In this document: piece after piece, positions 4,337 through 20,110 of the stretch
How the letters are laid out: each line of letters starts with the position of its first letter
How positions within the stretch are numbered: the stretch's first letter is position 1
IMG/VR virus record: IMGVR_UViG_3300038393_000351
Span: 53,392-117,391 of that record
Direction: 5' to 3' (one strand)
DNA: 64,000 bases
From: a virus
Translations under genes and position numbers: made by a program
The notes under the pieces: generated by a model
What the model saw: the letters and a program-made list of their open reading frames with translations, nothing else
What the model was told of the DNA's origin: nothing
Database searches by the model: none

Positions 4337-4436
4337 AACTTCCTAATATGTAGGGAATGATGATTCGAAGAAGTCCGGTATTATTAGCAATCACCATCAG
4401 TCCAATGAAGATGAGTACAGCAGTTACCCAGCGCAT
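4335..4436 (-). CDS. small membrane peptide (33 aa)
   Basis: Manual translation MRWVTAVLIFIGLMVIANNTGLLRIIIPYILGS; start overlaps regA stop. Confidence 0.5.
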   Translation of the reverse strand: MRWVTAVLIFIGLMVIANNTGLLRIIIPYILGS

Positions 4437-4837
4437 CACTTCTTCTTTCCGATAGCGTACTTTGGAGACAGTGTCCATTCCTTCTTCTCGTCGAAGTGGA
4501 TTACTTTAATCTTCTCCCGAAGGGGTCCTTCAATCTTTTCCGAGATAGCGTTCTTAGGTGTCCTGATCTTGACCAGATCCCATTGCTCAAGTAGGTCCGC
4601 GATCGTGTTTCGACGTGCTCGATCCTCATCATCGAATCCAGCATCCATGCCATCGAGCAGCCTCATCTCCTTGTAGTGAGTGATGAAGTATCGACCGCGC
4701 TTCTGTAGGATGTGGCAGGACTGATAGAGCGTCTTATCTTTTGAAATACCAATTCGAGTGAGCGTTTCCTTGACTTTCAGGAACTGCGGGCGATCTAGCG
4801 GCTCAATCTCAATAAACGTATCAATCAACTTCTGCAT
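4436..4837 (-). CDS. regA: translational repressor RegA
   Basis: FLKVKETLTRIGI...LYQSCHIL.K.GRYFI.HYKE; located after gp62. Confidence 0.95.
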   Translation of the reverse strand: MQKLIDTFIEIEPLDRPQFLKVKETLTRIGISKDKTLYQSCHILQKRGRYFITHYKEMRLLDGMDAGFDDEDRARRNTIADLLEQWDLVKIRTPKNAISEKIEGPLREKIKVIHFDEKKEWTLSPKYAIGKKK

Positions 4838-5274: not shown

Positions 5275-6219
5275 TTACTTCCACATCCCCGATCCCTCGA
5301 TCATGATCTCAGCCAGACAAGCCGAGAGGTTGATCTCCGGATCTACACTGAAAGCAGCCTGGTACTGATACTTCGCCAGAGTCACAACCAGAGCGGGAAT
5401 GAATCTCGGATCGAGCTGCTCAGATGCGGCGTCGTAGAACTTACGAAACACCGCTTGCTGTGAAGTATCGGAGTTCTCCGCAACCCACTTCCGTACGTTG
5501 GAATACTCCTTCTTCTTCATATAGCCAATGAGTTCATCTAGTGAAACTGACTCAAGGTTGACGAGAATTCCCGAATCGATCTTTCCGGTCGCTGAGTATC
5601 GCTGAAGTTCGTTGAGAATACGTCTCCAGTCGGGAAACCACTTCTGGATCACCGCAGCGAGAGCTTTCTTATCGTACTCGACACTCTCTTGTTCAAGGAT
5701 CACTTCCACTCGCTTCATGAACTGAACAGCGAGCTTGGCCATATCACTCTTCTTGATCTTGAAATCGATGATGGAACACCGACTCTGCAGAGCTTCAATG
5801 ATCTTATTCGGATAGTTCGCCGTTAGGATGAAGCCGCAGTTGTTCGAGAACTCCTCCATAAAGTTGCGAAGAGCCGGCTGAGTGCTGTTGGGATTCAGGT
5901 GATCGGCTTCGTCTAGGATCACGTACTTTCGTCCCTCGGAGAACGAGATAGACGACGCAAACTGAGTTATCTCATTTCGAAGAGTGTCGATGTTTCGATC
6001 GAGCGATCCATTCACGACGATGTAGTCGGAGCCAATCTCCTTAAGCATCGCTTTAGCGACAGTAGTCTTACCAACGCCGGCGTTCCCAGTCAAGAGGAGG
6101 TTCTGTACGTTCTTCTGGTCTACGTACGTTTGGAACACTTTCTTAAGATCTTCCGGCAGAATAACATCGGCGATCTTATTCGGTCTAAACTTCTCAGTCC
6201 AAAGATATTCGTCAGACAT
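5275..6219 (-). CDS. gp44: clamp loader AAA+ ATPase subunit
   Basis: WTEKFRP, Walker A GNAGVGKTT, ILDEAD, SRC motif. Confidence 0.97.
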   Translation of the reverse strand: MSDEYLWTEKFRPNKIADVILPEDLKKVFQTYVDQKNVQNLLLTGNAGVGKTTVAKAMLKEIGSDYIVVNGSLDRNIDTLRNEITQFASSISFSEGRKYVILDEADHLNPNSTQPALRNFMEEFSNNCGFILTANYPNKIIEALQSRCSIIDFKIKKSDMAKLAVQFMKRVEVILEQESVEYDKKALAAVIQKWFPDWRRILNELQRYSATGKIDSGILVNLESVSLDELIGYMKKKEYSNVRKWVAENSDTSQQAVFRKFYDAASEQLDPRFIPALVVTLAKYQYQAAFSVDPEINLSACLAEIMIEGSGMWK

Positions 6220-6693: not shown

Positions 6694-7037
6694 TATAGTT
6701 CTCCTTCTGAATGGCGAGCTTCGGCTGAACGAATGTCTCCTGTGTAGGGTTCGTTTGTATATTCGAAAATATCGGGTTTCACCGGCCAATACTCTCCCCT
6801 GACACCTCGACAGATGTAGTCGCCTACGTGAGCCGTCATCACACCTTCCAGAGTCTCGATACGAATCGTGTACTCCAGAGTGAAGATGTCGCGACTGATG
6901 GAAGCTTCGACACCTGAAGCCTTGATCTCATCGAGGATCGGCTTCGCCGTGAGTCCAGCGAACTTCATCGCCTCAGTCGTCCACTGGATCGCCTCAACGA
7001 CAACCGGCTTTCTCTTGTACTTCTTAAATACTGTCAC
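6693..7037 (-). CDS. conserved phage protein (KP-VEA...TLEG...GDY family)
   Basis: KYKRKPVVVEAIQW...IETLEG.MTA..GDYI.RG..GEYWPVKPDIF. Confidence 0.75.
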   Translation of the reverse strand: MTVFKKYKRKPVVVEAIQWTTEAMKFAGLTAKPILDEIKASGVEASISRDIFTLEYTIRIETLEGVMTAHVGDYICRGVRGEYWPVKPDIFEYTNEPYTGDIRSAEARHSEGEL

Positions 7038-7711
7038 TTCTTCTTTGACTCCGTCGTCACGAGGTAAGTAATGTTCTCCGATCCAAAGCGGGCGATTCCT
7101 CTAGATGAATACTTCACAGTATAATCAAGTGGTAGGAACTTGATGTTCTCCGATTTAAACAGAGCTGTGAACGCCTCCGTTGTAGTATCGAGCTCAGCTT
7201 CGTATGTATCTCCCGTCGGATTCTTAGAATCGAGAGCACGGAGCTTAACGGTCTCGCCGTCACCCACGACCTCAAACTCAGGAAGCTTCATGATCAGCAG
7301 AGCTTTGTTGACGTCTGCAAACACGTCGTTGCTCCAGGGAAACTCGATCTCACCCTTCTCAACGACCGCGATCAGCTTCTTGAACGTCTCGGGATCAACT
7401 GAGTTGATGTGCCTGGGATCAGCGAACGTATAGTTGAGCTGCTTCTTTCCCTCTTCGATGGTGATGAACTTATCACCGATCAGGAGCTCAGGATCTTCAA
7501 AGTGCGACATCACCGCCAGAAGACGATTGATGTCGTAGATCGCAAAGTCGCTCTCGAAGCTCTCAGCAATGGTAGCCTTAACCATGATGCTCTTGGCTTC
7601 TGAGATGGTGTAGATCTCGTTTCCCTGACGAAAGAGCAGGGACTTATTGATCGAAGCGAAGTTGCGAAGGATCGCGATCGTCTCCGGTGATAGCTTAATC
7701 TTCTGTGTCAT
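7034..7711 (-). CDS. gp45: DNA polymerase sliding clamp
   Basis: KLSPETIAILRNFASINKSL...FAIYDIN; synteny with gp44. Confidence 0.95.
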   Translation of the reverse strand: MTQKIKLSPETIAILRNFASINKSLLFRQGNEIYTISEAKSIMVKATIAESFESDFAIYDINRLLAVMSHFEDPELLIGDKFITIEEGKKQLNYTFADPRHINSVDPETFKKLIAVVEKGEIEFPWSNDVFADVNKALLIMKLPEFEVVGDGETVKLRALDSKNPTGDTYEAELDTTTEAFTALFKSENIKFLPLDYTVKYSSRGIARFGSENITYLVTTESKKK

Positions 7712-7730
7712 AATCTAAATTTCTTCTCCG

Positions 7731-8585
7731 TTAATTCTTTTTCTTCTTGAGTTGAGCTGGATCGACAGTAGCCGATGCGCCAATCGTAGCTAGATCAGCT
7801 AGTGAACCACCGAACACGTACGTTCCTACATGGTTCATCGACATCCACGGACAGAGCCACACTTTCAATCCCGCGTCGATACACTTCTGTGTAAACCAGT
7901 AGTCCTCAGAAAGATACCGTTTTGTCTTTGGGTCCACGTCGGCTTGGAAGTACATACCGATCTCCCTAGACCCATCGAAATCAGCCATGCGGGCGTGGTC
8001 CGGTCGATATGTAGACTCCGGATACGCTTGAAGGAACTTCTCCAGAGTCCTTCGCGGAATCATCATGAAACCAGTACCGATCTCCAAAACTTCAGCTGGT
8101 TCACTGATCTGGAATGAACCAGTGCCTGCTTTAGGATTGAAGACGTAGTCGCCAACGAACTTCTCCAAGATGTTGGGATCGGACTCAGCCTTACCCTGAT
8201 CAACGGCCATCTTGATCTTTTCCCAGGAGATGCACTTCTTAGGATATGGACCACCAATGACATCGTATGGAGAATTGGGATCAGCCGTCATAGCCATCAG
8301 AGCGACAACGTCCTGCGGAGTGAAGCCGATGTCTGCATCGATGAACATCAGGTGAGTAGCACCCGATCGCAGAAACGCATCGCAGCAGTAGTTTCTGGCT
8401 CGAGTAATCAGAGACTCATTCGAGAGAAAATAAAGCATGATCTCGATGCCATTCACCGCACACAGAGCAGTCAAGTCTGCGATTGCTTTAGTGAACATAC
8501 CGGCGCACATCCCACCGTACATTGGAGTCGCGATGAAGAGCTTATTCTTCCTCAGCTCCGACATCGGTACTGTAATTTCAACCAT
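7731..8585 (-). CDS. GT-A fold glycosyltransferase
   Basis: FIATPMYGG, ESLITRARN, LMFIDADI (DxD), TGFMMI, YLSEDYWF. Confidence 0.8.
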   Translation of the reverse strand: MVEITVPMSELRKNKLFIATPMYGGMCAGMFTKAIADLTALCAVNGIEIMLYFLSNESLITRARNYCCDAFLRSGATHLMFIDADIGFTPQDVVALMAMTADPNSPYDVIGGPYPKKCISWEKIKMAVDQGKAESDPNILEKFVGDYVFNPKAGTGSFQISEPAEVLEIGTGFMMIPRRTLEKFLQAYPESTYRPDHARMADFDGSREIGMYFQADVDPKTKRYLSEDYWFTQKCIDAGLKVWLCPWMSMNHVGTYVFGGSLADLATIGASATVDPAQLKKKKN

Positions 8586-8586
8586 T

Positions 8587-9174
8587 TTATCCTTTCTTCC
8601 TTAAGAACTCAGCGACGATGATTGTGATCTTTTCATAGTACTCATTGATCGTCGTGTCGTTGTGTACGTCCACCTCGTTCGGTGAAACGCCGTAGATGTA
8701 TGACCGAGAATCACCGGTAAAGTCGTAACCGGGGCGATGACACCTGATCAGAAGAGTGTTCTCCAAACCAAAAGCATCTGCAACTGGTTTAGCTTCCTCG
8801 ATAAAACCTGAATCCGGAACAACGATCGCGGATGCACTCGTGTTTCTATTTCGCTGAACGAAGAGTCGTGCAAAGATATCCGAGCCATACTTTAGCTTCA
8901 TATATGATTCTGAAAAATCGATCTGCCACTGGCGATATGAACAGTTAAATTCAGGAATGATGTCTCCCTTAGTGCTTTCATATGGTTCTACGTTTCCGTA
9001 TTCATCCATGCCAGCTCCTACAACACCGGCAAAAGCAGCTTTAAGCGGCATTGCAAACCGATCAAAATCAACGTAAGAATCGGCACTTATAGATGAGAAG
9101 ATCTTTTGTACTCTAAGAGCAGCAGTGTCTTTTCCAGAACGCGGTGGGCCGTTAAACAGAATTATCTTGGTCAA
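8587..9174 (-). CDS. deoxynucleoside monophosphate kinase (gp1-like)
   Basis: P-loop NGPPRSGKDT, FAMPLK, VVPDSGF..E. Confidence 0.8.
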   Translation of the reverse strand: MTKIILFNGPPRSGKDTAALRVQKIFSSISADSYVDFDRFAMPLKAAFAGVVGAGMDEYGNVEPYESTKGDIIPEFNCSYRQWQIDFSESYMKLKYGSDIFARLFVQRNRNTSASAIVVPDSGFIEEAKPVADAFGLENTLLIRCHRPGYDFTGDSRSYIYGVSPNEVDVHNDTTINEYYEKITIIVAEFLRKKG

Positions 9175-9355
9175 TGGGTTTCTCCTCTATAATGAGTTTT
9201 CTGTTCCCCCACACATAAAAATGAGCGTAGTCTCCCGGATTGAAGAGATCTGTTCTATCTCCAACGTATACAGAACCGTCTTCAAGCGATTCGACGACGC
9301 GGGCGGAGACGGTGTGATTTCCTCCGCCGTGAATGATGTGAATCTTTGTTGTCAT
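9152..9355 (-). CDS. hypothetical protein
   Basis: 67-aa ORF coupled by ATGA overlap. Confidence 0.55.
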   Translation of the reverse strand: MTTKIHIIHGGGNHTVSARVVESLEDGSVYVGDRTDLFNPGDYAHFYVWGNRKLIIEEKPIDQDNSV

Positions 9356-10563
9356 AGCAAAATGTCCTCGAGTGTTCTAGGTGCTTCCTTTTCATACACG
9401 TGTTTCTGAGTATGATTATATTGAAACACTAGCGGTTTAGTGACCCACTGCCTGTTTCCATTCAGTGCTTCACGAACTTCCACAGCCATGTCGTGTGCCG
9501 TCTTAACGGGAACGTTCTGACAGATGTGATTAGCCGATTTCTTTGGATCGAGAAGCTCAAAGTTCTCGGGAAGTCCCATTATCGACATAGCTTCACGATA
9601 AGTGATGAAGCGATCGTGAATTGGGTGTGTCAGGCAAGTGGGATAATGACCGACAAACGCACCGATGTAGTCCTTGGGAACAACAGTTCCGCGGCGCATT
9701 AAGTTTCCGCCGGCGTCGAGCTTAGCCTGCCTCTTGGCACACTTGGCGACTTCTCTTTCGAGACCCTGCTTCGCCATCCACTCACCGACTTGAGTGTAAT
9801 TATAACCCTGAAGCTCGATATATGACAACGAATCGTTGCCGCGGGCTTTCAAGGGTTCAAGAACTTTCGTCGAGAACTCTCGATGTGAGATACCACCGTG
9901 AATCACTTCCAGAATAAATCGGTAGTATGGATCTGACTCAGAAGGTGTCCTGGGATTGATCGGATCCATCTGGGAGTTTGACTTAACGTTGATTATAAGA
10001 TCTTCAATCTTCTGATGCGGCTCGTTATAGTAGTTCAAGATCGGAGTCTTATCGCCTTTCCAGAAGAAGTAGAACGAACGCTCCCGGACTTGAGGGATGC
10101 CGTGCAGGAGTGATCGCGTACGATAGAAAGAAGCTGTGTATCCATACTTCTTTCCAATGCTGATTAAGTTAGCTCGTACGTTCTGTCCAATCTTTCCGGC
10201 TAGTCCTGGAGCGTTCTCACCGAAGTACGCAGCTGGTTTAATCGTTCCCAGAACATACTCAGCTGCTTTCGGCATCCAATCGTTTGCGGGATTGTTGTCA
10301 CCGTATCCATGGGATAACTGAGACAAGCCCGCACAAGGACACGTGCTGTGAACAACGTCTACTTTAGTGTGCGGAGAATCACCGTTGTCTATTACGTAGT
10401 ACGGAACGTCTTTACCAAGCGTGCTTTGGTAGTGATTGACGATGTGCTTATCGTTATTCCAAAACGCTTTGTACGAAATAAGATATTCTGGATCTTGATC
10501 AAAAGCCTTGGCTGTTCCAATATCCATTCCACCAATGAGTGGAATAATTCCCGCGAATTTCAA
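9352..10563 (-). CDS. C5-cytosine DNA methyltransferase-like protein (atypical motif I)
   Basis: catalytic PCAGLS (motif IV), ENAP (VI), PQVRER (VIII), RFITYREAMSIMGLP (IX), QNVP (X); motif I is IPLIGG. Confidence 0.85.
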   Translation of the reverse strand: MKFAGIIPLIGGMDIGTAKAFDQDPEYLISYKAFWNNDKHIVNHYQSTLGKDVPYYVIDNGDSPHTKVDVVHSTCPCAGLSQLSHGYGDNNPANDWMPKAAEYVLGTIKPAAYFGENAPGLAGKIGQNVRANLISIGKKYGYTASFYRTRSLLHGIPQVRERSFYFFWKGDKTPILNYYNEPHQKIEDLIINVKSNSQMDPINPRTPSESDPYYRFILEVIHGGISHREFSTKVLEPLKARGNDSLSYIELQGYNYTQVGEWMAKQGLEREVAKCAKRQAKLDAGGNLMRRGTVVPKDYIGAFVGHYPTCLTHPIHDRFITYREAMSIMGLPENFELLDPKKSANHICQNVPVKTAHDMAVEVREALNGNRQWVTKPLVFQYNHTQKHVYEKEAPRTLEDILL

Positions 10564-10577
10564 ATTACCTCTTTTCT

Positions 10578-11051
10578 CTATGGCAGTAGAATTTTCTTAG
10601 TAAGAAGGATAGCTTCCTCCATATCGTGAACTGTGAACGGACAAGCCTCACGCATCATAGCATGATCGTGAACGTTAGGTGAATCCTTCTCGGTCAGATA
10701 GACGATGGGAATGTTCCATGCATCGGCCCAGGCTACTTCCATCACAGTACCAATGGAGACTCGGCCAGCACCGATCATATTCACGAAAACGAGATCGGAT
10801 GTCTTGACGTCATTGCGGTCGCGATGAAAGATGCCGCGCTGTGTCGACATGACGGAGAGTGTGTCTGGATAGACATCCAGGATCTCCTTCTCATTGGAGA
10901 GATACTCCTTTGAGCGAAGGGGAGAGTACGCAACGATCCTACCATTGGAGATGTCGTCCAACTGCTTACTTACATACTCACGCCAGTTGGTGCATCCACC
11001 CCAGGAGCAACCGGTAATCGGACCTGCGGTATATACTTTATATGAATTCAT
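10578..11051 (-). CDS. nucleoside 2-deoxyribosyltransferase / nucleotide N-glycosidase family protein
   Basis: VYTAGPI...D...SIGTVMEVAWA motif set. Confidence 0.8.
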   Translation of the reverse strand: MNSYKVYTAGPITGCSWGGCTNWREYVSKQLDDISNGRIVAYSPLRSKEYLSNEKEILDVYPDTLSVMSTQRGIFHRDRNDVKTSDLVFVNMIGAGRVSIGTVMEVAWADAWNIPIVYLTEKDSPNVHDHAMMREACPFTVHDMEEAILLTKKILLP

Positions 11052-11070
11052 AATGTAAAAACCTCTGAGC

Positions 11071-11078
11071 TATTTATA
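11071..11078 (-). promoter_or_regulatory. T4-type late promoter
   Basis: TATAAATA on minus strand just upstream of the NDT-like gene. Confidence 0.55.
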
Positions 11079-11343
11079 CTCGACTTCGATAAACGTCACC
11101 GTTTTCCAACATTTTCTTATCTTCGTATGGAGAAACTACTCGACGAGAGAACTCTAACTTAGCGCACTCCAATGCACCAATGATCTCATTACAACGTGTA
11201 TATGAGATGTTGTGTCCAAGATATGCATCACATATCGTAGTGATGACGTAGTTCAGTTCACCTGGAGTAAAGCACGCAGTACCAACTGAACTTAGGTAGC
11301 GATCACGTAGATTCAGACGTGCTTCTTCACTGATGTACGGCAT
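11074..11343 (-). CDS. conserved hypothetical protein
   Basis: MPYI...PGELNYVIT...IGALECAKLEF.RR...PYEDKK..ENGDVY pattern often seen in nucleotide-metabolism clusters. Confidence 0.75.
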   Translation of the reverse strand: MPYISEEARLNLRDRYLSSVGTACFTPGELNYVITTICDAYLGHNISYTRCNEIIGALECAKLEFSRRVVSPYEDKKMLENGDVYRSRV

Positions 11344-12568
11344 TTTCAATCTTTCTCATTAAATCATCAAAGACAAACTGCGAGTCTTGGTGTGCTTTAT
11401 AGTACTCAAACGCTTTGAGTCTCCATGCATGGCGTTCATGCGGGTCTTCTGAGAGGCGCTTGATGATTTCGAACGCCTGACCCATGTCGCTCTTATTCGT
11501 CGGAAGCCAGATCGTTCCGGAGTCGTCTTCAGTCAAGCGATTACCCGTCACACGATGGGTGCAAGCGTCACCGAACTCCTTCCTGAAAACTGGAAGAGCA
11601 CCAACTGCTGGAATCTCACAATGAGTGTATTCAATCGATTTATCTATGAATTTTGAATCAAGAAGCGAGAGCTGAAATCCAAACGCAGTCTTGGCCATTC
11701 TCTTCAGCATGGCGTCGTTGTTGTATACGGAGAACACTACGGCGTCTTTTCCACGATAGTCCTTCATATCAACGGTATCTGGATCTTTGTTCGCCAGCAT
11801 ATCAACGAAGACGGACTTCGTCTTAAAGTCGAGATACGCAGGCGACTTCTCGATACCCTCTAGAACCGTGGCGAATCCAGCATCGCGAAGGTAGTTGTTG
11901 TGTAAATCGAACATGGGAACGAAGCCTTTCCAGAAAGTCGTTCGTCCGATCCACCGACATAGTTTATCATCTTGTGCCATGACTGGACACCAATATCTCT
12001 CGAAGAGAGCATCAAAGTTGCACGCCGGCTGAAACGTTTCGATCTTTCTTCCAGGAGAAAACAGTGTCTCGAGTCCCTCACCGCCTGAAAACGACGCCAC
12101 TTGCTCAGCGAAGTGACCGGTCGTTGAGTGTGCAAAGATAGCCGCGGCGCGATCTACTAGAATCTCAGTGCCTGCGTTTCTACGCAGGGACAGCTTGTTG
12201 TGATCGTGCTGGATCATGATGATCGGAGGCTTACACTCCGAGATGCACTCCAGAAAGTTATCAACGGCCTTGGCATCGTGTGCTTTGACAGTCTTCTTTA
12301 CTTGAGCCGATGGTAGGGAGTTGACGATGACCACATCGGCTTTATTGATGATGTCCATAGCGTGCTTGAACTGATCATCTTTGGCGAACTTGAATTGAAG
12401 GCAATCGAGTTCGTGGGAATCCTTTCGAGACCACGTTTTATCTTTCAGGGCGATCACTGGATTATTGATGCCCTTTTTCTTTAAGTACTTCTGAAGCTCA
12501 ATAGTGAACTTCGTAACACCACATCCCTCTACACCCCTCCCAAGAAGAGTGACTACATTGCTAATCAC
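11327..12568 (-). CDS. agt: DNA alpha-glucosyltransferase (hmC)
   Basis: RGVEGCGVTKF, QHDH..LSLRRN, RWIGRTT.WKGF, EG.E.SPA, SIEYTH.E, HQDS all match T4 Agt. Confidence 0.92.
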   Translation of the reverse strand: MISNVVTLLGRGVEGCGVTKFTIELQKYLKKKGINNPVIALKDKTWSRKDSHELDCLQFKFAKDDQFKHAMDIINKADVVIVNSLPSAQVKKTVKAHDAKAVDNFLECISECKPPIIMIQHDHNKLSLRRNAGTEILVDRAAAIFAHSTTGHFAEQVASFSGGEGLETLFSPGRKIETFQPACNFDALFERYWCPVMAQDDKLCRWIGRTTFWKGFVPMFDLHNNYLRDAGFATVLEGIEKSPAYLDFKTKSVFVDMLANKDPDTVDMKDYRGKDAVVFSVYNNDAMLKRMAKTAFGFQLSLLDSKFIDKSIEYTHCEIPAVGALPVFRKEFGDACTHRVTGNRLTEDDSGTIWLPTNKSDMGQAFEIIKRLSEDPHERHAWRLKAFEYYKAHQDSQFVFDDLMRKIENAVHQ

Positions 12569-12945
12569 GATTCGATATACTCCTTGCAGCGCTTCAGTTC
12601 AGCGCGTTCAAACTCTTTATCATTCAGAAGACGATTTCTCGGTGATGGGTGCGGGAGCTTAAAGTGCTCCACGTTCAACTTATCGAGAACTCTAGATGCA
12701 AACCCACCCAGTGCGACGATTTTCTCGTGATACTTAGTAACTTCTCGAAGTAGATCCCACTGAACGTACTCCATCTTAGCCGCGCCGCGATCAGGGACAG
12801 AGTTTACGAAGGATATCACGCCAAGATCCATGTCGTCTACCCACGCCGACAGCTTCTTGAACGTTTGGTTGGGCTTCATTCCGATCGTCGGTCGATCCGC
12901 TGGATTCATTCCTACAAAGAGAACGTTTATTTTCTTCCTGCTCAT
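12565..12945 (-). CDS. uracil-DNA glycosylase superfamily protein (minimal)
   Basis: VLFVGMNP, IVALG, LPHPSPRN motifs; ATG at 12945. Confidence 0.75.
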   Translation of the reverse strand: MSRKKINVLFVGMNPADRPTIGMKPNQTFKKLSAWVDDMDLGVISFVNSVPDRGAAKMEYVQWDLLREVTKYHEKIVALGGFASRVLDKLNVEHFKLPHPSPRNRLLNDKEFERAELKRCKEYIES

Positions 12946-13708
12946 GGTCGTGTCTTTCCCAAAAATCTTCTGTGAACTTAAGATTGATCTGCGGCTCTGA
13001 ACTGTATGGGATATTCTCCTTCTGGAAGAGAGGAAGAACTGCTTTAATGATTCCATCTGCATTCGATATGGACAAATACGTTACAGTTATAGGCATCACC
13101 GATTTAGACGGTGGAAACGTATAGGTCGCTTTCAGATCACCGCGATAGAAGGGCAGACGCTTGTATCCTTCATAATCGACTTCATTTGTCTCAACGCGAT
13201 TACCAGCGTACACTTGTCCAGTGTGAATTGAAATATACTCTATTTCCTTCTCGGAGGGAATTTCGTAACACACGAACTCAACACCACACTTATTGAACAT
13301 AAACTTCGTATCTTCAAAGGAAGCAGCCCACTTAGATTTCATGGGCTTATATCTCATGACGACTCGCTTGATACCAGATTGTATCACGGCTTTAGCACAC
13401 TCAGAACAAGTAGCGATACCATCCACAAAGAGCGTAGCTCCTTTTAAGGAAACTCCGTTTCTGGCTGCGTTATAGATCGCGTTCTCCTCGGCGTGAACTA
13501 CGTACTTCAGCTTTATTTCACGATCGTTATAGAGTTCCTCATCATCGGGAAATCCCTCAGGAAAACCGTTGTAGCCTGTCGCAACGATTCGACGATCGAT
13601 AACGGCTACCGCACCTAGCTTTGATCTCGGGTCTTTCGACCACGTAGCTATCTCATTCTTAGCTACGTCGAGAAACCGCTTATCCCACTTGGGAATCTCT
13701 ACTTCCAT
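12791..13708 (-). CDS. cd: dCMP deaminase with long C-terminal extension
   Basis: WSKDP, TGYNGFP, HAEENAI, CSEC zinc motifs. Confidence 0.88.
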   Translation of the reverse strand: MEVEIPKWDKRFLDVAKNEIATWSKDPRSKLGAVAVIDRRIVATGYNGFPEGFPDDEELYNDREIKLKYVVHAEENAIYNAARNGVSLKGATLFVDGIATCSECAKAVIQSGIKRVVMRYKPMKSKWAASFEDTKFMFNKCGVEFVCYEIPSEKEIEYISIHTGQVYAGNRVETNEVDYEGYKRLPFYRGDLKATYTFPPSKSVMPITVTYLSISNADGIIKAVLPLFQKENIPYSSEPQINLKFTEDFWERHDHEQEENKRSLCRNESSGSTDDRNEAQPNVQEAVGVGRRHGSWRDILRKLCP

Positions 13709-14484
13709 GGTGACTCCGGATACTTCTCGCGATACTCAGATTTCTTGATTGAGATCTGACCAGTCTTATCGTAGTGATCGACTAGATAGAAATCCTTCTC
13801 ATAGCAGTGAAGGGAACCGACTTGCCAGTGAATCGTACCAGCTTCGAGCTCACCGCCGAAGCTCTGGTTCAGAACATCGACCATGTTGTGCTGAACGTGC
13901 CTCTGCCAAGCGTAGTCGTTCCTATAGCCCGCCCAGACGTCGTTGCTGCGCATCTGAACTACGACGTCCAGAAGACCATCACGGATCAGGTATTGAACTG
14001 CGTTCGTACAGACGAAATCCGACATACCACCCTTATTGTAGTCTTCGTGCATAGAGGGACGGTTATAGATAGCCAGTGCCCTGCGGGAGAGCGGATTCTT
14101 CTTGAGCTCCTCGATCACGTTCCTCCACTGATAGTAGTTCTCAGCGGAGTATAGAATAAAACCGTAGTTTGAGTTGATGTATCCGGTGCGCTCTGAGTTC
14201 AGCTCAGGAATGATCTCCTTCGACGCGATCTGTTGCCAGATCTTCGGAGGACCACCCGGGATATCATTAACGTTTCTCGACATCGACTGATACCACTCGA
14301 GCTCACGTGAAACGTAGTCCTCGTTCACTTCACCAAAGATGAGGGGTTCATCTGCGATGAAGTCAGCACCGACGATCTCGATCGTCTTGACACCAGTCTT
14401 ATCGATCACGAACTGCTCTCGAAGCAGGAGATCAGTGAACTGCGATCGTACTTCCAGAATCCTATTATCTCGATATCCCTGCAT
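13699..14484 (-). CDS. gp42: dCMP hydroxymethylase (thymidylate synthase fold)
   Basis: MSDFVCTNAVQYLIRD...MRSNDV..G.RNDYAWQ nearly identical to T4 gp42; Asp at the dCMP-specificity position. Confidence 0.9.
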   Translation of the reverse strand: MQGYRDNRILEVRSQFTDLLLREQFVIDKTGVKTIEIVGADFIADEPLIFGEVNEDYVSRELEWYQSMSRNVNDIPGGPPKIWQQIASKEIIPELNSERTGYINSNYGFILYSAENYYQWRNVIEELKKNPLSRRALAIYNRPSMHEDYNKGGMSDFVCTNAVQYLIRDGLLDVVVQMRSNDVWAGYRNDYAWQRHVQHNMVDVLNQSFGGELEAGTIHWQVGSLHCYEKDFYLVDHYDKTGQISIKKSEYREKYPESPWK

Positions 14485-14491
14485 CTTATTC

Positions 14492-14950
14492 CTATCGGCT
14501 CACTGAGGGAATGCGAAAATCCCATTCATCTGTTTTATCAATCGGACAGAACGCCACCGTTGGTTGAGCTTGACCCATCAAACCCTCATAACCCGTCAAG
14601 CTCGGAGTGTTTGAAGCAACTATACATCGGTTAAACATGTCGCGATCGGGCTTCTGACCCTCCATCTTACCGCGAAGCCAAGACACACCGAACGATGCGT
14701 AGTTGATGAGGTCTTTCAGAGAATCCTCGATCGACTCATGCTTGGGTTTTACACCGGCCGCGGAAGCCTCGAGCAGAGACTGAATCCTGAGCATCTTACC
14801 ATTCATCGTATCGAAGATCGTGTCGATGCCTCGGCGATAGTGATCGGCTTGAACAACGTTCGAGTTCGGATTCTGATAATCCTGCGACTTCGCGAGCTGA
14901 AGTTCAATGCATTCACGAAGGACTTTTACCGATTCTCTTTCTTCACTCAA
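14492..14950 (-). CDS. nucleotide-modification-associated all-alpha protein (DUF1599/Nmad1-like)
   Basis: K.QDY...KMLRI.SL...ESIEDSLKDLINYA. Confidence 0.75.
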   Translation of the reverse strand: MSEERESVKVLRECIELQLAKSQDYQNPNSNVVQADHYRRGIDTIFDTMNGKMLRIQSLLEASAAGVKPKHESIEDSLKDLINYASFGVSWLRGKMEGQKPDRDMFNRCIVASNTPSLTGYEGLMGQAQPTVAFCPIDKTDEWDFRIPSVSR

Positions 14951-15579
14951 TTAGCTAACTCCACTAGTCTCCTCAGCTCTGGGCAGAGGGGTTGAAAATA
15001 CTTTGGACGAATGAGCAAGTCTCTATCAAGAATTAACCTCAGAGAGACTGCTAATGAATGCTCTTCAATGTTTGCCTGAATAAAATTCAATATAACCGAT
15101 GAAGCAATTGAAAAAGCTGGCCTATACTTAAATGTCGTTGATCCATTATCTCTATCTGGTTTCACGCCTTTTGTAAAACCAAATAAAAAGAAGTCGTTGT
15201 GTGCAGTTGATTTCTTGATTGAATCATACGTTGCCGGACTGATCCACACCATGTCTCCTCTCTTACTCAAGTGAGTGAAGGATTTAACTTGAACACACTC
15301 CGAACCGTAGTATAAATCCACGGCGATCTCCGACCATGGGTGTTCGTTTGGATTCTCATAGATAGGATTTGCGGGAACAAAGAGGCCGGTCGAAGTGAAG
15401 TAGTCCTCTAGACCGAAGCCAGACGCCGTGTCATATTGAACCTGCTGCAGAGTCCTCTTGTTCGAGACGCGTCCAAAATTATTACGCACCATCTGCTCGA
15501 AACCAACGATATTTCGAGCGTCGATAGTGGCTTCAGGCGTGTTTTGAAGTAAGACTACGTCCAGTTCGTTGATCATCAC
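14947..15579 (-). CDS. hypothetical protein, possible PD-(D/E)xK nuclease
   Basis: E...VDLYY.SECVQVKS resembles a D-x(n)-QxK catalytic motif. Confidence 0.5.
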   Translation of the reverse strand: MMINELDVVLLQNTPEATIDARNIVGFEQMVRNNFGRVSNKRTLQQVQYDTASGFGLEDYFTSTGLFVPANPIYENPNEHPWSEIAVDLYYGSECVQVKSFTHLSKRGDMVWISPATYDSIKKSTAHNDFFLFGFTKGVKPDRDNGSTTFKYRPAFSIASSVILNFIQANIEEHSLAVSLRLILDRDLLIRPKYFQPLCPELRRLVELAN

Positions 15580-16001
15580 AAGTCACACACCGGCTTCTTA
15601 AAGATGATCTCGAGTGTTCCGATGTTGTCCTTATGAGACGGTGCAGTCCATCCCTCAGGCTTCATCAGATCAGGTAAACCCAACGGATTTGGACGACCCT
15701 CTTTGATTCCAGGCTTCTTATTCATATTAGCTTCGAGAACGTTGTCCCAAGCTTGATATGAGTCTACACCGAAAGCATCGAGTGTTCCGATAGCCACAAC
15801 ACAGAGATCGATCAGAGCGTCTACGACGTCATCTGCGTTCTCAGCATTCTTCAGTTCATTGAGCTCTTCTTGGAGAAAGTTGATTCGGAACTCAAGAAGC
15901 TTCTTAGCTTTCTCTCGATCAAGTGTGATCTCGTCGAAAGCATAGTCCATGTTGTAAAACTCATGCATCTCAGCGATGTCATAAACCCAATTACTCGAAA
16001 T
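15576..16001 (-). CDS. MazG/dimeric dUTPase-like NTP pyrophosphatase (candidate dCTPase)
   Basis: LQEELNE...VVDALIDL...ANM.K...KPEGW; probable ATT start at 16001 (ORF track uses ATG 15968). Confidence 0.82.
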   Translation of the reverse strand: MSSNWVYDIAEMHEFYNMDYAFDEITLDREKAKKLLEFRINFLQEELNELKNAENADDVVDALIDLCVVAIGTLDAFGVDSYQAWDNVLEANMNKKPGIKEGRPNPLGLPDLMKPEGWTAPSHKDNIGTLEIIFKKPVCDL

Positions 16002-16035
16002 AACACTTCTCCTTTTTGATTATTACAGAACAAAA

Positions 16036-16110
16036 TGGCGCACCTAGACGGAATCGAACCGCCGACACAAGGGTTGAAAGCCTCCGTTCTACCATCTGAA
16101 CTATAGGTGC
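16036..16110 (-). tRNA. tRNA with atypical anticodon arm (TTC/Glu or TCA reading)
   Basis: GCACCTA/TAGGTGC acceptor, GTTC/GAAC D-stem, GGCGG-TTCGATT-CCGTC T-arm, encoded CCA; anticodon arm imperfect. Confidence 0.8.
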
Positions 16111-16116
16111 TGAAAT

Positions 16117-16231
16117 TGGCTGGGATGGTCAAAGCTTACACGGAAAATCACTTTGACGATAGGCTGCGCGATCTTTATCCGTTATTCAATCGTGCCAATG
16201 TGAACATCGTTACCGAGTCACCAACATCCCA
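16117..16231 (-). ncRNA. 115-nt tRNA-like small RNA
   Basis: 5' TGGGATG pairs with CATCCCA followed by GCCA-3'; internal hairpin GTCAAAG/CTTTGAC; between a promoter and the tRNA. Confidence 0.6.
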
Positions 16232-17510: not shown

Positions 17511-17548
17511 ATAAAAGTTGATCCCGTAAAACGTTTTACGGGATCAAC
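17511..17548 (-). terminator. terminator / 32-bp perfect palindrome
   Basis: GTTGATCCCGTAAAACGTTTTACGGGATCAAC (17517-17548) followed by TTTTAT on minus strand. Confidence 0.7.
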
Positions 17549-17723: not shown

Positions 17724-18401
17724 TCATGTACTATTTATCAGATGTCTTGGAAGACAGTCTAGAAAATGCTTCTTATCATCGGGAGACAGAGAATCCCTCC
17801 AAGATTTATACATAGCCTTCGTATCTATCCAGTTCGTCATCGTTCCCTGAAATGGCATAGTGTTGTCCCAGATCCACCAAGCATACGCAACCATTCCAGA
17901 GATAGCAGTCTTTTCAGTATGCCATCTATCCTCATTACATGAAAAGCGGCCTGAGAAGATGAGAATGTCGGACGGCGGTGTCTCTTTAAACATCTTCAAA
18001 CGCCTGTTTGACTCAGCGAACGTCAGTCGACAGAGCATCGCTGTGTATGGAACTAATGAAATCGAGCGTTCGATAAACGCCTGAGCCATATTCTTCCCAT
18101 ACGGTGGATTGGTGATTATACCATCAAAATCACCTTCTGTTTTAAGAAAATCATTGCCGTATTCTACAGGAGAAACTGGATCACGATAGTTATAGAGATC
18201 AGTCGCGTACACTTCTCGTTGATTACGCTTGAGCTCCCAGGCCATCCAGCCTCGACCAGCGGCCGGCTCCCAGATCTTCCTGGGTGGAGCATGATATTGA
18301 ACAAGAGCGTAGGTAGCGAATGGATGTGTGGGGTAGTGATCGTGCTCGTTGCGTTCCTCTGTAACAGTCCGAACACCACCGTACATATTAGCAAATGTCA
18401 T
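17724..18401 (-). CDS. N6-adenine (amino) DNA methyltransferase
   Basis: D.YPT, WEPAAGRG SAM-binding motif, ITNPPY catalytic motif. Confidence 0.88.
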   Translation of the reverse strand: MTFANMYGGVRTVTEERNEHDHYPTHPFATYALVQYHAPPRKIWEPAAGRGWMAWELKRNQREVYATDLYNYRDPVSPVEYGNDFLKTEGDFDGIITNPPYGKNMAQAFIERSISLVPYTAMLCRLTFAESNRRLKMFKETPPSDILIFSGRFSCNEDRWHTEKTAISGMVAYAWWIWDNTMPFQGTMTNWIDTKAMYKSWRDSLSPDDKKHFLDCLPRHLINST

Positions 18402-20110
18402 TGTACCATCTTTGAAAAATTATTGTGCTTCTCAAATTTAATCACTTTCTCAAACTGATCGTAGAGCTGATCGGCTTTATGAGAGATGACGAAGACGTTG
18501 TTGTCTTCGGTGACTTTACCCAATATCTTCATGAACTCCTCGATCCCTGTAGCATCGAGTGAGGAGTCAAACACTTCGTCCATGATGAGAAGGTTCGTGT
18601 TGATCGATGAGCGAAGCTTCGCGACTGCTCTCCAAGCAAAGAGAACGGCCAGATCGATCCTCATCTTCTCACCCTCTGAGAATGAATTGTATGAGAAGTC
18701 GTCTCGTCCCCGCGACTTGATCGTCTCCTCAAAGTTCTCATCCATGTTGAAGTCGACAAAGAAGTCGAGTGAGGCTAAGTACTTATTGATCAGCTTGTTG
18801 ATGATCGGAACATACTGCTTGATGATCTTAGCTTTGATCCCGGTATCCTTGAGAAGGACGGAGACGTACTCCATCATGTACAGTTGGTTCTCAAGTTCCT
18901 TCTTCTCGATCTCAAGCTCTTTCAGATCACTTTCTAAATCATCTAGAGATTCTCCAGATATCTCCTTCTGCTCAACATCGAGCGCTTCTATCTCTCGTTC
19001 AAGTGTTCTGATGTACTTATCTATCGTATCGATCTTTGTTCCGAGAACGTATATCTCAACGTTGATGTCGGCTACTTTCTTATTAACAGCGGTGATCTCC
19101 CGAAGACGCTCCTCTACCTTCGAATACTGTTCTCCTAAAAGCTTCAGACCAGCTTCAGTCTCAGCTACGGCGTCCTTCTTAGAGGACAGCGTACACTCCT
19201 TAAAAGAACCATTTATCTCTTGATTACACGTAGGACAATTATCATGATCGTTTAAAAACTTAACATCCTGAAGAAGAGATGATATCTTACCATCGAGCTG
19301 ATTTCTGATGGATCGCATCTTCTTAGCGCGATTATCAAGTGAATGAAAGTCAGTAATCTGCTCAAGAAGTGCATCGACTTCCTTAGTCTTCTGATGAATG
19401 GCTATTCCGTGATCCTGTCGCTCCTCATACAGCGCTGTGATCTTCTCCTCCTTCTCCCAGATCTGCTTCTGCTTCTCCTCAGCGAGCTGCTCAGTGTGCT
19501 TCTTAGCCATCTTGATCTTGGCATCTAGAACATCTTTTTCACGTTTCCTATCCTGAATTAACTTTTCTACATATGAAAAACGAGTTTTCAGGATTGTGTT
19601 CATAGAAGTAAAGATTTTCAAGTCGAGAACGTCTTCGGTGATCTCCCTTCTCTGACCACCGGGAAGCTGCATGAACGGAACGAATGAAGCTGAACCGAGA
19701 ATGACTATCTGACAGAAAGTCTTGAAGTTAGTCTTGAGGATGTGCTTTTCTAGATGTGCCTGATAGTCTGTATTCTTTGCATCTTGATTGATCAAGACAC
19801 CGTTCTTCCAGATCTCAAAGACGTTCGGTCTCATCCCGCGAACGACTTTATAGTGCGCTCCTCGAGTCTTGAACTCAACGTATCCCAGACAGTCTTTCTT
19901 AGTCGCGCTGTTGCACAGCTGGGGCTTGTTGATCTTTCTGAATGGTTTATTAAACAGAACGAAGCACAGAGCATCGAGCATCGTCGACTTTCCAGCGCCG
20001 TTGTCACCGACGACTAGAGTCATTTTATTCTCAGTCAGGTCGATCTCAGTCATGAGATTGCCCGTCGAGAGAAAGTTCTTATACCCAATTTTAAGAAAAT
20101 AAAGGTTCAT
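18398..20110 (-). CDS. gp46: recombination endonuclease ATPase subunit (Rad50/SbcC-like)
   Basis: KNFLSTGN, GDNGAGKST, CPTC zinc hook, FSEGEK, LIMDE. Confidence 0.97.
   Translation of the reverse strand: MNLYFLKIGYKNFLSTGNLMTEIDLTENKMTLVVGDNGAGKSTMLDALCFVLFNKPFRKINKPQLCNSATKKDCLGYVEFKTRGAHYKVVRGMRPNVFEIWKNGVLINQDAKNTDYQAHLEKHILKTNFKTFCQIVILGSASFVPFMQLPGGQRREITEDVLDLKIFTSMNTILKTRFSYVEKLIQDRKREKDVLDAKIKMAKKHTEQLAEEKQKQIWEKEEKITALYEERQDHGIAIHQKTKEVDALLEQITDFHSLDNRAKKMRSIRNQLDGKISSLLQDVKFLNDHDNCPTCNQEINGSFKECTLSSKKDAVAETEAGLKLLGEQYSKVEERLREITAVNKKVADINVEIYVLGTKIDTIDKYIRTLEREIEALDVEQKEISGESLDDLESDLKELEIEKKELENQLYMMEYVSVLLKDTGIKAKIIKQYVPIINKLINKYLASLDFFVDFNMDENFEETIKSRGRDDFSYNSFSEGEKMRIDLAVLFAWRAVAKLRSSINTNLLIMDEVFDSSLDATGIEEFMKILGKVTEDNNVFVISHKADQLYDQFEKVIKFEKHNNFSKMVQ

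Follow-up and report, generated by a model that had tools for sequence, protein, structure and literature searches.

A predicted T4-like cassette for glycosylated 5-hydroxymethylcytosine DNA between gp46 and gp45 of an uncultured, non-T-even soil phage

The restriction, CRISPR, and glycosylase defenses that a phage evades depend on the modified cytosines in its DNA, and the pathways that produce them also yield enzymes for epigenetic sequencing. The pathway to glucosylated 5-hydroxymethylcytosine (hmC) is textbook knowledge. Here, we analyzed a stretch of 64 kb, referred to as the window, which is the final part of the 117,391-bp IMG/VR virus record IMGVR_UViG_3300038393_000351, originating from an uncultured soil phage. 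Between gp46 and gp45, it harbors a tight run of 13 genes on the minus strand (window positions 7731 to 15968; the cassette). An initial annotation of the locus had proposed that this run is a self-contained cytosine hypermodification cassette and that several extra enzymes may produce a base beyond alpha-glucosyl-hmC. The question raised by the locus is which base it makes. All twelve genes named in the annotation were recovered on the minus strand where it had placed them, as judged from the list of open reading frames (ORFs) and from family and fold searches. The cassette is real, and its product is almost certainly glycosyl-hmC DNA. Our interpretation, which we consider probable, is that the block would make DNA in which alpha-glycosylated, most likely alpha-glucosylated, hmC replaces cytosine, with the remaining genes mostly serving in housekeeping. 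As it stands in this phage, it is a variant of a known hmC system with an ordinary product rather than a new base.

Among 50,697 phage records, only Stenotrophomonas phage DLP6 matched at the nucleotide level, with 74% identity over 3% of the query. Because DLP6 is the sole cultured relative at this level, the non-T-even lineage given in the initial annotation is correct. The cassette type recurs in hundreds of uncultured phages related to the phiM12/Cr30/DLP6 branch of T4-like phages.

A 5-hydroxymethyl-dCMP synthase in the cassette

The assignment of the modified base depends in the first place on the following gene.

13699-14484, minus strand: dCMP hydroxymethylase of the T4 gp42 family, 261 aa (PDB 1b49/1b5d, E 2.9e-82)

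The catalytic cysteine, C146 in ThyA of Escherichia coli, pairs with C148 of T4 gp42 in the ...SDF-x-CTN segment, and the substrate-determining aspartate equivalent to N177 is likewise aligned. Positions 143, 146, 169, and 177 in ThyA numbering read D, C, D, and D (L143D, C146 kept, D169 kept, and N177D). This signature was also present in all 52 sufficiently long homologs from related loci, and Cys146 was found in 53 of 53 sequences when the window enzyme was included. According to the available text of a 2026 paper, an aspartate in place of N177 confers selectivity for dCMP, hydroxymethylation as opposed to methylation is associated with an acidic residue at L143, and an asparagine in place of D169 marks 5-hydroxy-dCMP synthases (PMC13326640). 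The same text reports that in RB69 and many other T4-like phages the product of the gp42-like enzyme is 5-hydroxy-dCMP and not 5-hydroxymethyl-dCMP. As all four diagnostic residues and the structure of T4 gp42 match, the window enzyme is a 5-hydroxymethyl-dCMP synthase by every available sequence criterion. This agrees with the hmC synthesis proposed initially; the signature points to neither dTMP nor hydroxymethyl-dUMP as the product. An RB69-type 5-hydroxycytosine was considered and rejected: the synthase keeps the aspartate at D169.

No second gene of the thymidylate synthase (TS) fold was present in the record. Outside the window, a 301-aa ORF showed a subthreshold match to ThyX (G000:C1:34763-35209; E 2.1e-5, 20.3 bits versus a cut-off of 24.8), and the record offers no other candidate thymidylate synthase of the phage.

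Agt and a swappable sugar slot

11327-12568, minus strand: homolog of the DNA alpha-glucosyltransferase (Agt), 413 aa, filling the variable sugar slot (PF11440, 1.2e-74)

The Agt homolog matched PF11440 over almost its full length (positions 1-353 of 355), with 251.9 bits against a cut-off of 25, and phrog_2888 with 1.1e-87. Its identity to T4 a-gt was 36.7% over 96% of the query, and that to a-gt of T-even and Klebsiella phages ranged from 35 to 39% over 96 to 98% of the query. The Agt-type transferase of the initial annotation is thus borne out at the family level. By homology, the enzyme would transfer glucose from UDP-glucose to hmC in DNA, forming an alpha linkage. No b-gt homolog was seen in the cassette, and no record-wide search aimed at b-gt was made.

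The cassette was compared across related contigs by using its C5-cytosine-methyltransferase-fold protein (C5MT-like, described below) as a query. Relatives of this protein turned up on at least 430 IMG/VR contigs. Eighty of these loci were fetched, and the window proteins were mapped onto them; the resulting counts are lower bounds, with many loci cut by contig ends, and the C5MT-like gene occurs in 80 of 80 by construction of the search. The GT-A glycosyltransferase gene was found in 73 loci, gp45 in 66, the deaminase gene in 64, gp42 in 55, Nmad1 in 39, and an Agt-like gene in 37. The MazG gene was found upstream of gp42 in 35 loci, and the gene resembling uracil-DNA glycosylase (UDG-like) directly after the deaminase gene in 32. 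The constant order of genes is gp46, deformylase, MazG, one or two variable genes, Nmad1, gp42, deaminase, UDG-like, the variable slot, C5MT-like, a gene for a DUF3310-like protein or an Rv2179c-like exonuclease, GT-A, gp45, and gp44.

Several alternatives to a plain Agt gene occupied the slot. These were a 365-aa protein with UDP-galactopyranose mutase; a TET-associated glycosyltransferase (TAGT) with an epimerase and a UDP-glucose-dehydrogenase-like gene; and an Agt-like gene with a cytidylyltransferase. In five loci (L011, L013, L046, L057, and L058), Agt was replaced by a homolog of inositol-1-phosphate synthase, a protein with the helical domain of 5-hmdU-DNA kinase (E 1.3e-5), and a protein of about 370 aa, a sign that hmC in these phages may be decorated with a cyclitol or a non-sugar group. 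The window carries the simplest, T4-like version of this cassette, with Agt in the slot. Six of its genes, those for the kinase, the 67-aa ORF, the nucleoside 2-deoxyribosyltransferase (NDT)-like protein, the DUF6899 protein, the 210-aa protein, and the upstream 231-aa protein, were found in no more than 2 of the 80 loci. Their main other carrier is a 98%-identical twin locus, L004. These six genes are recent additions.

Nucleotide pool genes

15576-15968, minus strand: all-alpha nucleoside triphosphate (NTP) pyrophosphatase of the MazG/PRA-PH type, 130 aa (PF01503 6.8e-8, 33.3 bits versus a cut-off of 21.3)
14492-14950, minus strand: Nmad1 (DUF1599, PF07659), 152 aa (DUF1599 2.4e-4, 21.8 bits, below the cut-off of 25)
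12791-13708, minus strand: dCMP deaminase, analogue of T4 Cd (PF00383 8.1e-20; phrog_174 2.8e-47)
8587-9174, minus strand: P-loop deoxynucleoside monophosphate (dNMP) kinase of the phrog_139 type, 195 aa (phrog_139 1.6e-32)

The MazG protein, which also matched phrog_671 (5.9e-19), had been proposed to replace gp56. That it acts as a dCTPase/dUTPase and functional analogue of T4 gp56 is plausible: T4 gp56 falls in the same Pfam neighborhood (dUTPase_2 2e-5, PRA-PH 0.019). A homologous relationship was rejected, with no direct similarity between the two proteins (BLASTP E 5.6; hhalign probability 1.1%). Relatives that lack hmC carry MazG as well. In DLP6 and Cr30, the corresponding gene sits by regA. 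No MazG gene follows regA in this phage (window 4442-5250, compared with L003 and L094), the only close MazG being the cassette copy, and the gene therefore looks like a lineage gene that was relocated into the cassette.

Nmad1 is a constant partner of MazG and gp42. Whereas the window protein scored below the DUF1599 cut-off, 16 of the 25 aligned family members matched DUF1599 at an E value of 0.01 or less, the best at 6.2e-7. In the profile of phrog_18404, MazG matches positions 48-139 and Nmad1 matches positions 161-251. The idea that Nmad1 is a cryptic MazG was discarded (hhalign probability 0.4%), and a profile search of the PDB returned weak matches to CodY only.

The deaminase ORF spans 305 aa, with the deaminase domain at residues 7-130 followed by a sublineage-specific C-terminal extension of at least about 100 aa. 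Homologs in other loci comprise 145 to 220 aa, the extension being common to the window and its twin L004. The end of the ORF overlaps the UDG-like gene by 155 nucleotides (nt) in a different frame (region 12791-13062). A translated tail, a recent read-through, and a frameshift site are candidate explanations.

Relatives of the kinase are widespread, occurring in 1,082 phage records. The cassette kinase matched Pfam DNMK, the T4 gp1-type kinase family, only at an E value of 0.21, and no DNMK match was found anywhere in the record. The enzyme would phosphorylate hydroxymethyl-dCMP (hm-dCMP). Of the 80 related loci, only the near-identical twin L004 has the kinase gene within the cassette. The description of the cassette as self-contained consequently holds for the window sublineage but does not extend to the wider group.

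A glycosyltransferase of the lineage core

7731-8585, minus strand: GT-A-fold glycosyltransferase, 284 aa (AF2 and Foldseek; invariant DxD)

This protein had no Pfam or NCBIfam match, and its only PHROG match was a family of unknown function. A search of PDB sequences with its profile gave no match either; the fold search alone succeeded. The AF2 model, built from a 34-sequence alignment, reached a pLDDT of 85.7 and a pTM of 0.85. In the PDB, Foldseek ranked STIV A197 first (1.8e-9), followed by the collagen galactosyltransferase COLGALT1 and the glycosyltransferase domain of LH3. There were 201 PDB matches at an E value of 0.001 or less, and every listed one was a glycosyltransferase. Both aspartates of the DxD motif, D83 and D85, are invariant.

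Homologs with 45 to 61% identity are located between gp46 and gp45 in DLP6, Cr30, and phiM12. DLP6 has no TS-fold gene, and the ThyA of Cr30 and phiM12 is canonical, with Leu143 and Asn177. Since the homologs share the locus in these hmC-free phages, the hmC cassette was inserted beside a preexisting GT-A gene. The gene is a lineage core gene that adjoins the hmC cassette and is not specific to it, and its product probably glycosylates something other than DNA. A role as a second glucosyltransferase of the T2/T6 type was also rejected: besides this status as a core gene, no T-even phage was among the 63 records with a GT-A homolog.

A C5-methyltransferase-like enzyme with a polymerase-like tail

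9352-10563, minus strand: C5-cytosine-methyltransferase-fold enzyme (C5MT-like), 403 aa (PF00145 2.9e-17)

The C5MT-like protein scored 63.5 bits against PF00145 (cut-off 22), but only 35.2 bits against the NCBIfam dcm model (cut-off 100.65). PADLOC models of type II methyltransferases also matched, with values down to 2.3e-21. Catalytic motifs IV, VI, and VIII (CPCAGLS, GEN, and Q-x-RER) were invariant in 34 sequences, as were the C-terminal motifs. The canonical motif I of C5-methyltransferases, which binds S-adenosylmethionine (SAM), is FxGxGG. In the C5MT-like protein it reads I-P-L-I-G-G, and PLIGG is invariant in the same 34 sequences. A HMMER alignment to PDB 3g7u placed no acidic residue at motif II. 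The enzyme thus resembles C5 methyltransferases (M.HaeIII, PDB 3g7u, and PF00145) in its fold-level match, in the PC, ENx, and QxRxR residues, and in motifs IX and X. It differs from them in motifs I and II, in a score far below the dcm cut-off, in a polymerase-like clamp tail, and in being always linked to an hmC synthase.

Among cultured phages, homologs were found in 8 records that fall into 3 groups, and every group has a TS homolog of the Asp177 type. The TS homologs of Pseudoalteromonas phage XG4 and Bacillus phage G show the hydroxymethylase signature; that of the S-TIM5 group combines Asp177 with Cys143. Phage G and the S-TIM5 group also hold Agt-like genes. In cyanophage S-TIM54 (L088), the gene annotated as ThyA has Asp at N177 and Cys at L143 and lies about 2.7 kb from the C5MT-like homolog; its product probably modifies dCMP rather than serving as a thymidylate synthase. 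In the portion of the literature that was available, nothing was found on the S-TIM5 methylase-like gene.

The extreme C terminus of the C5MT-like protein is kept across 58 distinct homologs, typically as T-L-E-x-F-F. Its pattern, [ST]-[LI]-x-x-[FIL]-[FL], matched the tail of the phage's own gp43 polymerase in 8 of the 8 phages for which both C termini were readable. The window is the sole case with aliphatic ends instead of Phe-Phe in both tails, which amounts to a single co-varying event. The tail of T4 gp43 is of the same type, and it is this tail that binds the gp45 clamp. When three copies of gp45 were modeled together with the C-terminal 44 residues of the C5MT-like protein (residues 360-403), the score was 0.57, compared with 0.27 for the best of three controls. 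This passes a mark that, in the calibration, 51 of 78 solved complexes attained, as did 2 of 108 mismatched pairs; the support is weak, and the range of 0.60 or less held only 5 of the 78 solved complexes and all 4 passing mismatches of 180. The runs agreed in at least 58% of contacts, and the pLDDT of the partner was at least 40. A clamp-peptide complex of this type has already been solved, and the pass may therefore reflect likeness to that structure. From the tails and the fold model, we concluded that the C5MT-like enzyme would act on DNA, tethered to the gp45 clamp by its polymerase-like tail.

Accessory genes

14947-15579, minus strand: 210-aa protein, possibly a PD-(D/E)xK nuclease like DenB (T4 endonuclease IV)
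12565-12945, minus strand: minimal UDG-superfamily protein, 126 aa from the likely ATG (PF03167, 25.3 bits versus a cut-off of 24.3 once trimmed to the likely start)
11074-11349, minus strand: small DUF6899 protein, 91 aa (PF21840 7.9e-26)
10578-11051, minus strand: NDT-family protein, 157 aa (PF05014, 30.8 bits versus a cut-off of 28.8)

The gene listed initially as a putative nuclease was present, although its functional assignment is weakly supported. The 210-aa protein had no Pfam, PHROG, or NCBIfam match, and a tblastn search against phages matched nothing. The nearest named cluster in the ESM Atlas was T4 endonuclease IV (score 0.93). In a weak BLASTP alignment with T4 DenB (E 0.092), the invariant D88 and (Q/D)V98-K99 pair with the D...EVK residues of DenB. 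By hhalign against DenB, the 210-aa family itself reached 0.2%; U6, which occupies this position in related loci but is a distinct protein, matched DenB at 79% (E 1.6e-5). The AF2 model of the 210-aa protein (pLDDT 39.7) was too poor for a fold search, and a large protein search returned only 2 near-identical proteins.

Members of the UDG-like family comprise about 120 to 140 aa. The motifs G-x-N-P-[SA] and H-P-S-[PG]-x-N are kept across 24 aligned homologs, in which G, P, H, P, and the last N are invariant and the first N occurs in at least 90%. The ESM Atlas leans toward UDG, and NCBIfam and PADLOC scans were empty. We take the motifs to resemble the signature of SMUG1, which removes 5-hydroxymethyluracil. 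Our best guess is that the protein is a glycosylase removing uracil or 5-hydroxymethyluracil that arises by deamination. Removal of 5-hydroxymethyluracil fits a genome in which hmC, or hm-dCMP through the linked deaminase, deaminates to that base. According to the accessible part of a preprint, deamination of the hm-dCMP type was seen for seven metavirome deaminases (bioRxiv 10.1101/2024.12.05.627091). A defense enzyme of the UDG superfamily that excises glucosyl-hmC is described in the text available to us (PMC11078745), and other specificities of the UDG-like protein are therefore possible.

The NDT-like protein has a glutamate, presumably the nucleophile of the family, within a G-T-x-x-E-x-x-x-A segment, and it may act as a nucleotide or nucleoside N-glycosidase in pool sanitation. 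Homologs occur in Tunturi_5, adjoining ribonucleotide reductase, in BDU-MI-1, and in CRP-7. Of the 80 loci, L004 alone shares the NDT-like and DUF6899 genes with the window. In Roseobacter phage CRP-7 (L102), an unrelated phage of 58 kb, homologs of the two are located at 4388-4831 and 7610-7852, respectively. They flank the DNA polymerase gene of the replication module, with DUF6899 directly after the polymerase. The two proteins may work together.

Organization of the locus and its neighbors

7034-7711: gp45, downstream flank
5275-6219: gp44, downstream flank, with gp62 and regA also downstream
9152-9355, minus strand: 67-aa ORF of no known family (no match in family scans; among the 80 loci, found in the window and L004)
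16036-16110, minus strand: tRNA-Glu(UUC), directly upstream of the MazG gene (ARAGORN)
17548-17517, minus strand: strong terminator-like hairpin upstream of the deformylase gene, with a 14-bp GC-rich stem and a T run after it
17724-18401, minus strand: NPPY-motif DNA methyltransferase, 225 aa, located between the hairpin and gp46 (phrog_799, 1.8e-43)
18398-20110: gp46, upstream flank

Going upstream from the cassette, the order is tRNA-Glu, the 231-aa protein (no family match), peptide deformylase, the terminator-like hairpin, the NPPY-type methyltransferase, and gp46. Because the tRNA-Glu gene occupies 16036-16110, a 93-aa ORF at 15851-16132 is spurious. The hairpin at 17517-17548 is the best candidate for the upstream limit of the transcription unit. 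Counted from the first in-frame start codons, 8 of the 13 junctions overlap and the remaining 5 have gaps of 1 to 22 nt, with no gaps of promoter size. The cassette is therefore effectively one transcription unit, even though the initial statement that nearly all of its genes overlap was too strong. The NPPY methyltransferase is probably a Dam-like amino-methyltransferase, and the phage DNA may therefore also contain N6-methyladenine.

Discussion

In the pathway that we propose, the MazG-type pyrophosphatase would convert dCTP to dCMP, and the gp42-type enzyme, whose sequence support is good, would convert dCMP to hm-dCMP. The cassette kinase together with the NDP kinase of the host could then supply hm-dCTP for incorporation by the T4-type replisome. 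In the DNA, the Agt homolog would add a sugar to the hydroxymethyl group; its family is well supported, and glucose in alpha linkage is the expected outcome. Like T4 Cd, the dCMP deaminase may provide the dUMP needed for thymidylate. The 210-aa protein, if it is a DenB-like nuclease, might act against cytosine DNA, the UDG-superfamily glycosylase may remove uracil or 5-hydroxymethyluracil, and the NDT-family N-glycosidase may clean the nucleotide pool. Most likely, these three accessory proteins perform housekeeping for an hmC genome and are not steps to a further base. The GT-A protein would be a neighbor inherited from hmC-free ancestors, and the C5MT-like enzyme a constant cassette member that works on DNA at the gp45 clamp.

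The cassette shares with the T-even pathway (gp56, gp42, gp1, Cd, Agt/Bgt, and DenB) a gp42 with the full signature, Agt, dCMP deaminase, an all-alpha NTP pyrophosphatase in the role of gp56, and a location in the replication block 43-62-44-45-46-47. In contrast to the single block between 45 and 46 described here, 42 and b-gt lie on one side of the 43-47 block in T4 and a-gt on the other. The contrast with dispersed T4 genes that was drawn initially is only partly justified, since the T4 genes flank that block within about 12 kb. T4 further differs in a kinase of the gp1 family and in a pyrophosphatase, gp56, without detectable likeness to the cassette MazG. Compared with the corresponding T4 region (13-40 kb), the cassette has Nmad1, the UDG-like protein, and the clamp-tailed C5MT-like enzyme as extra constant members.

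Co-localization of a TS with Asp177, dCMP deaminase, and PRA-PH marks metavirome contigs with modified cytosine, as described in the available text of the MetaGPA papers (PMC8670742; bioRxiv 10.1101/2024.12.05.627091). The cassette has the same three-domain core with equally tight linkage as those MetaGPA neighborhoods. The available text of these papers makes no mention of C5-methyltransferase-like, UDG-like, or Nmad1 partners; their supplements may list contigs of the clade. In the accessible part of the latter paper, the deaminase-linked synthases that were tested mostly made 5-methyl-dCMP (bioRxiv 10.1101/2024.12.05.627091), whereas the cassette synthase has the hydroxymethyl signature. 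The system for arabinosyl-5-hydroxycytosine in RB69 and DLP3, as far as it is set out in the available text (PMC13326640), is alike in its T4-like background, gp42-like synthase, cognate dNMP kinase, and DNA glycosyltransferases. It differs in having Asn instead of Asp at D169 of the synthase, and NDP-arabinose genes are absent here. In a search that mostly excluded subscription journals, no literature was found on a C5MT-like gene in hmC cassettes, on a phage SMUG-like glycosylase, or on an Nmad1 partner.

Could the final base go beyond alpha-glucosyl-hmC, as the initial annotation suggested? T2 and T6 make gentiobiosyl-hmC, and a second sugar added by the GT-A protein would be a comparable outcome; alternatively, the C5MT-like enzyme might alter hmC or glucosyl-hmC. 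The GT-A fold and its invariant DxD are real, and the gene adjoins the cassette. Yet its homologs occupy the same position in relatives unable to make hmC, its structural neighbors are glycosyltransferases acting on proteins or glycans, and its 63 records include no T-even phage. The C5MT-like enzyme is constant in the cassette (80 of 80 loci, as the search dictates) and recurs with an Asp177-type TS in three unrelated cultured groups, two of which have an Agt-like gene. It retains the catalytic Cys, ENx, and QxRxR but not the SAM motif I. However, it is present whatever the sugar genes are, which fits a sugar-independent role better than the tailoring of one sugar. The UDG-like protein, Nmad1, and the deaminase are likewise constant irrespective of the sugar genes, and NDT-like and DUF6899 homologs belong to replication or nucleotide modules of unrelated phages. 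We therefore regard a base beyond alpha-glucosyl-hmC as unlikely, and the C5MT-like enzyme is the only remaining candidate for extra DNA chemistry. A different suggestion is that hmC substitution is incomplete and that the C5MT-like protein is a divergent SAM-dependent cytosine methylase on the clamp, methylating leftover cytosine. With all of its catalytic motifs intact and a Pfam DNA_methylase score of 63.5 bits against 22, alongside PADLOC values to 2.3e-21, the protein would suit this role, and the dCTPase activity of MazG is itself only expected from its family. What makes us doubt it strongly is PLIGG in place of FxGxGG in motif I and no motif II acid in the 3g7u alignment, together with a dcm score of 35.2 against 100.65; strict linkage to hmC synthase genes would also be unexpected for a generic anti-restriction methylase.

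That the TS-fold enzyme makes dTMP, hydroxymethyl-dUMP, 5-methyl-dCMP, or an RB69-like 5-hydroxy-dCMP is very improbable. Close gp42 relatives in RB69-like phages do make 5-hydroxy-dCMP, according to the available text, so that similarity to gp42 is no proof in itself (PMC13326640). Nevertheless, Asp177 argues for dCMP over dUMP, Asp143 for hydroxymethylation over methylation, and the retained D169 against a 5-hydroxy-dCMP synthase, with the same residues in 52 of 52 relatives. Moreover, the Agt homolog, a relative of the T4 enzyme acting on hmC, is encoded three genes downstream, past the deaminase and UDG-like genes. Several observations weigh against alpha-glucosyl-hmC as a full replacement of cytosine in this phage. 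The prediction is drawn from the genes of a phage that is uncultured, and its record was judged to be 67% complete, so that other modification genes may lie elsewhere. The Agt homolog is only about 37% identical to T4 Agt, and its sugar donor and linkage are those expected of the family. DLP6, which is hmC free, has a MazG with 34 to 36% identity directly after regA, and Cr30 has a nucleotide pyrophosphohydrolase in the same place. The cassette MazG may consequently be an ordinary house-cleaning enzyme that was relocated, and substitution could be partial if it does not remove dCTP. The kinase does not belong to the gp1 family of T4, and its action on hm-dCMP is presumed. Finally, the case for the 210-aa protein as a nuclease is weak, and the assignment of the UDG-like protein barely passes the Pfam cut-off; in a PDB profile search, the latter gave no UDG at an E value of 0.1 or less, the best match being 3ikb (E 0.14).

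With glycosyl-hmC DNA as the favored product, the cassette represents T4 chemistry rebuilt as a single portable unit, with a swappable slot for sugar pathways, in a soil lineage far from the T-even phages. Its interest lies in the constant partners, chiefly the clamp-tailed C5MT-like enzyme, which could be a new DNA-modifying activity. We tentatively suggest, as a possibility that we hold to be short of likely, that this enzyme travels on gp45 behind the replication fork and uses Cys-C6 chemistry without SAM, either hydroxymethylating stray cytosines with another one-carbon donor or activating the hydroxymethyl group of hmC for exchange. If this is true, hundreds of environmental T4-like phages would rely on an undescribed reaction for the completeness of their base modification or for its final chemistry.

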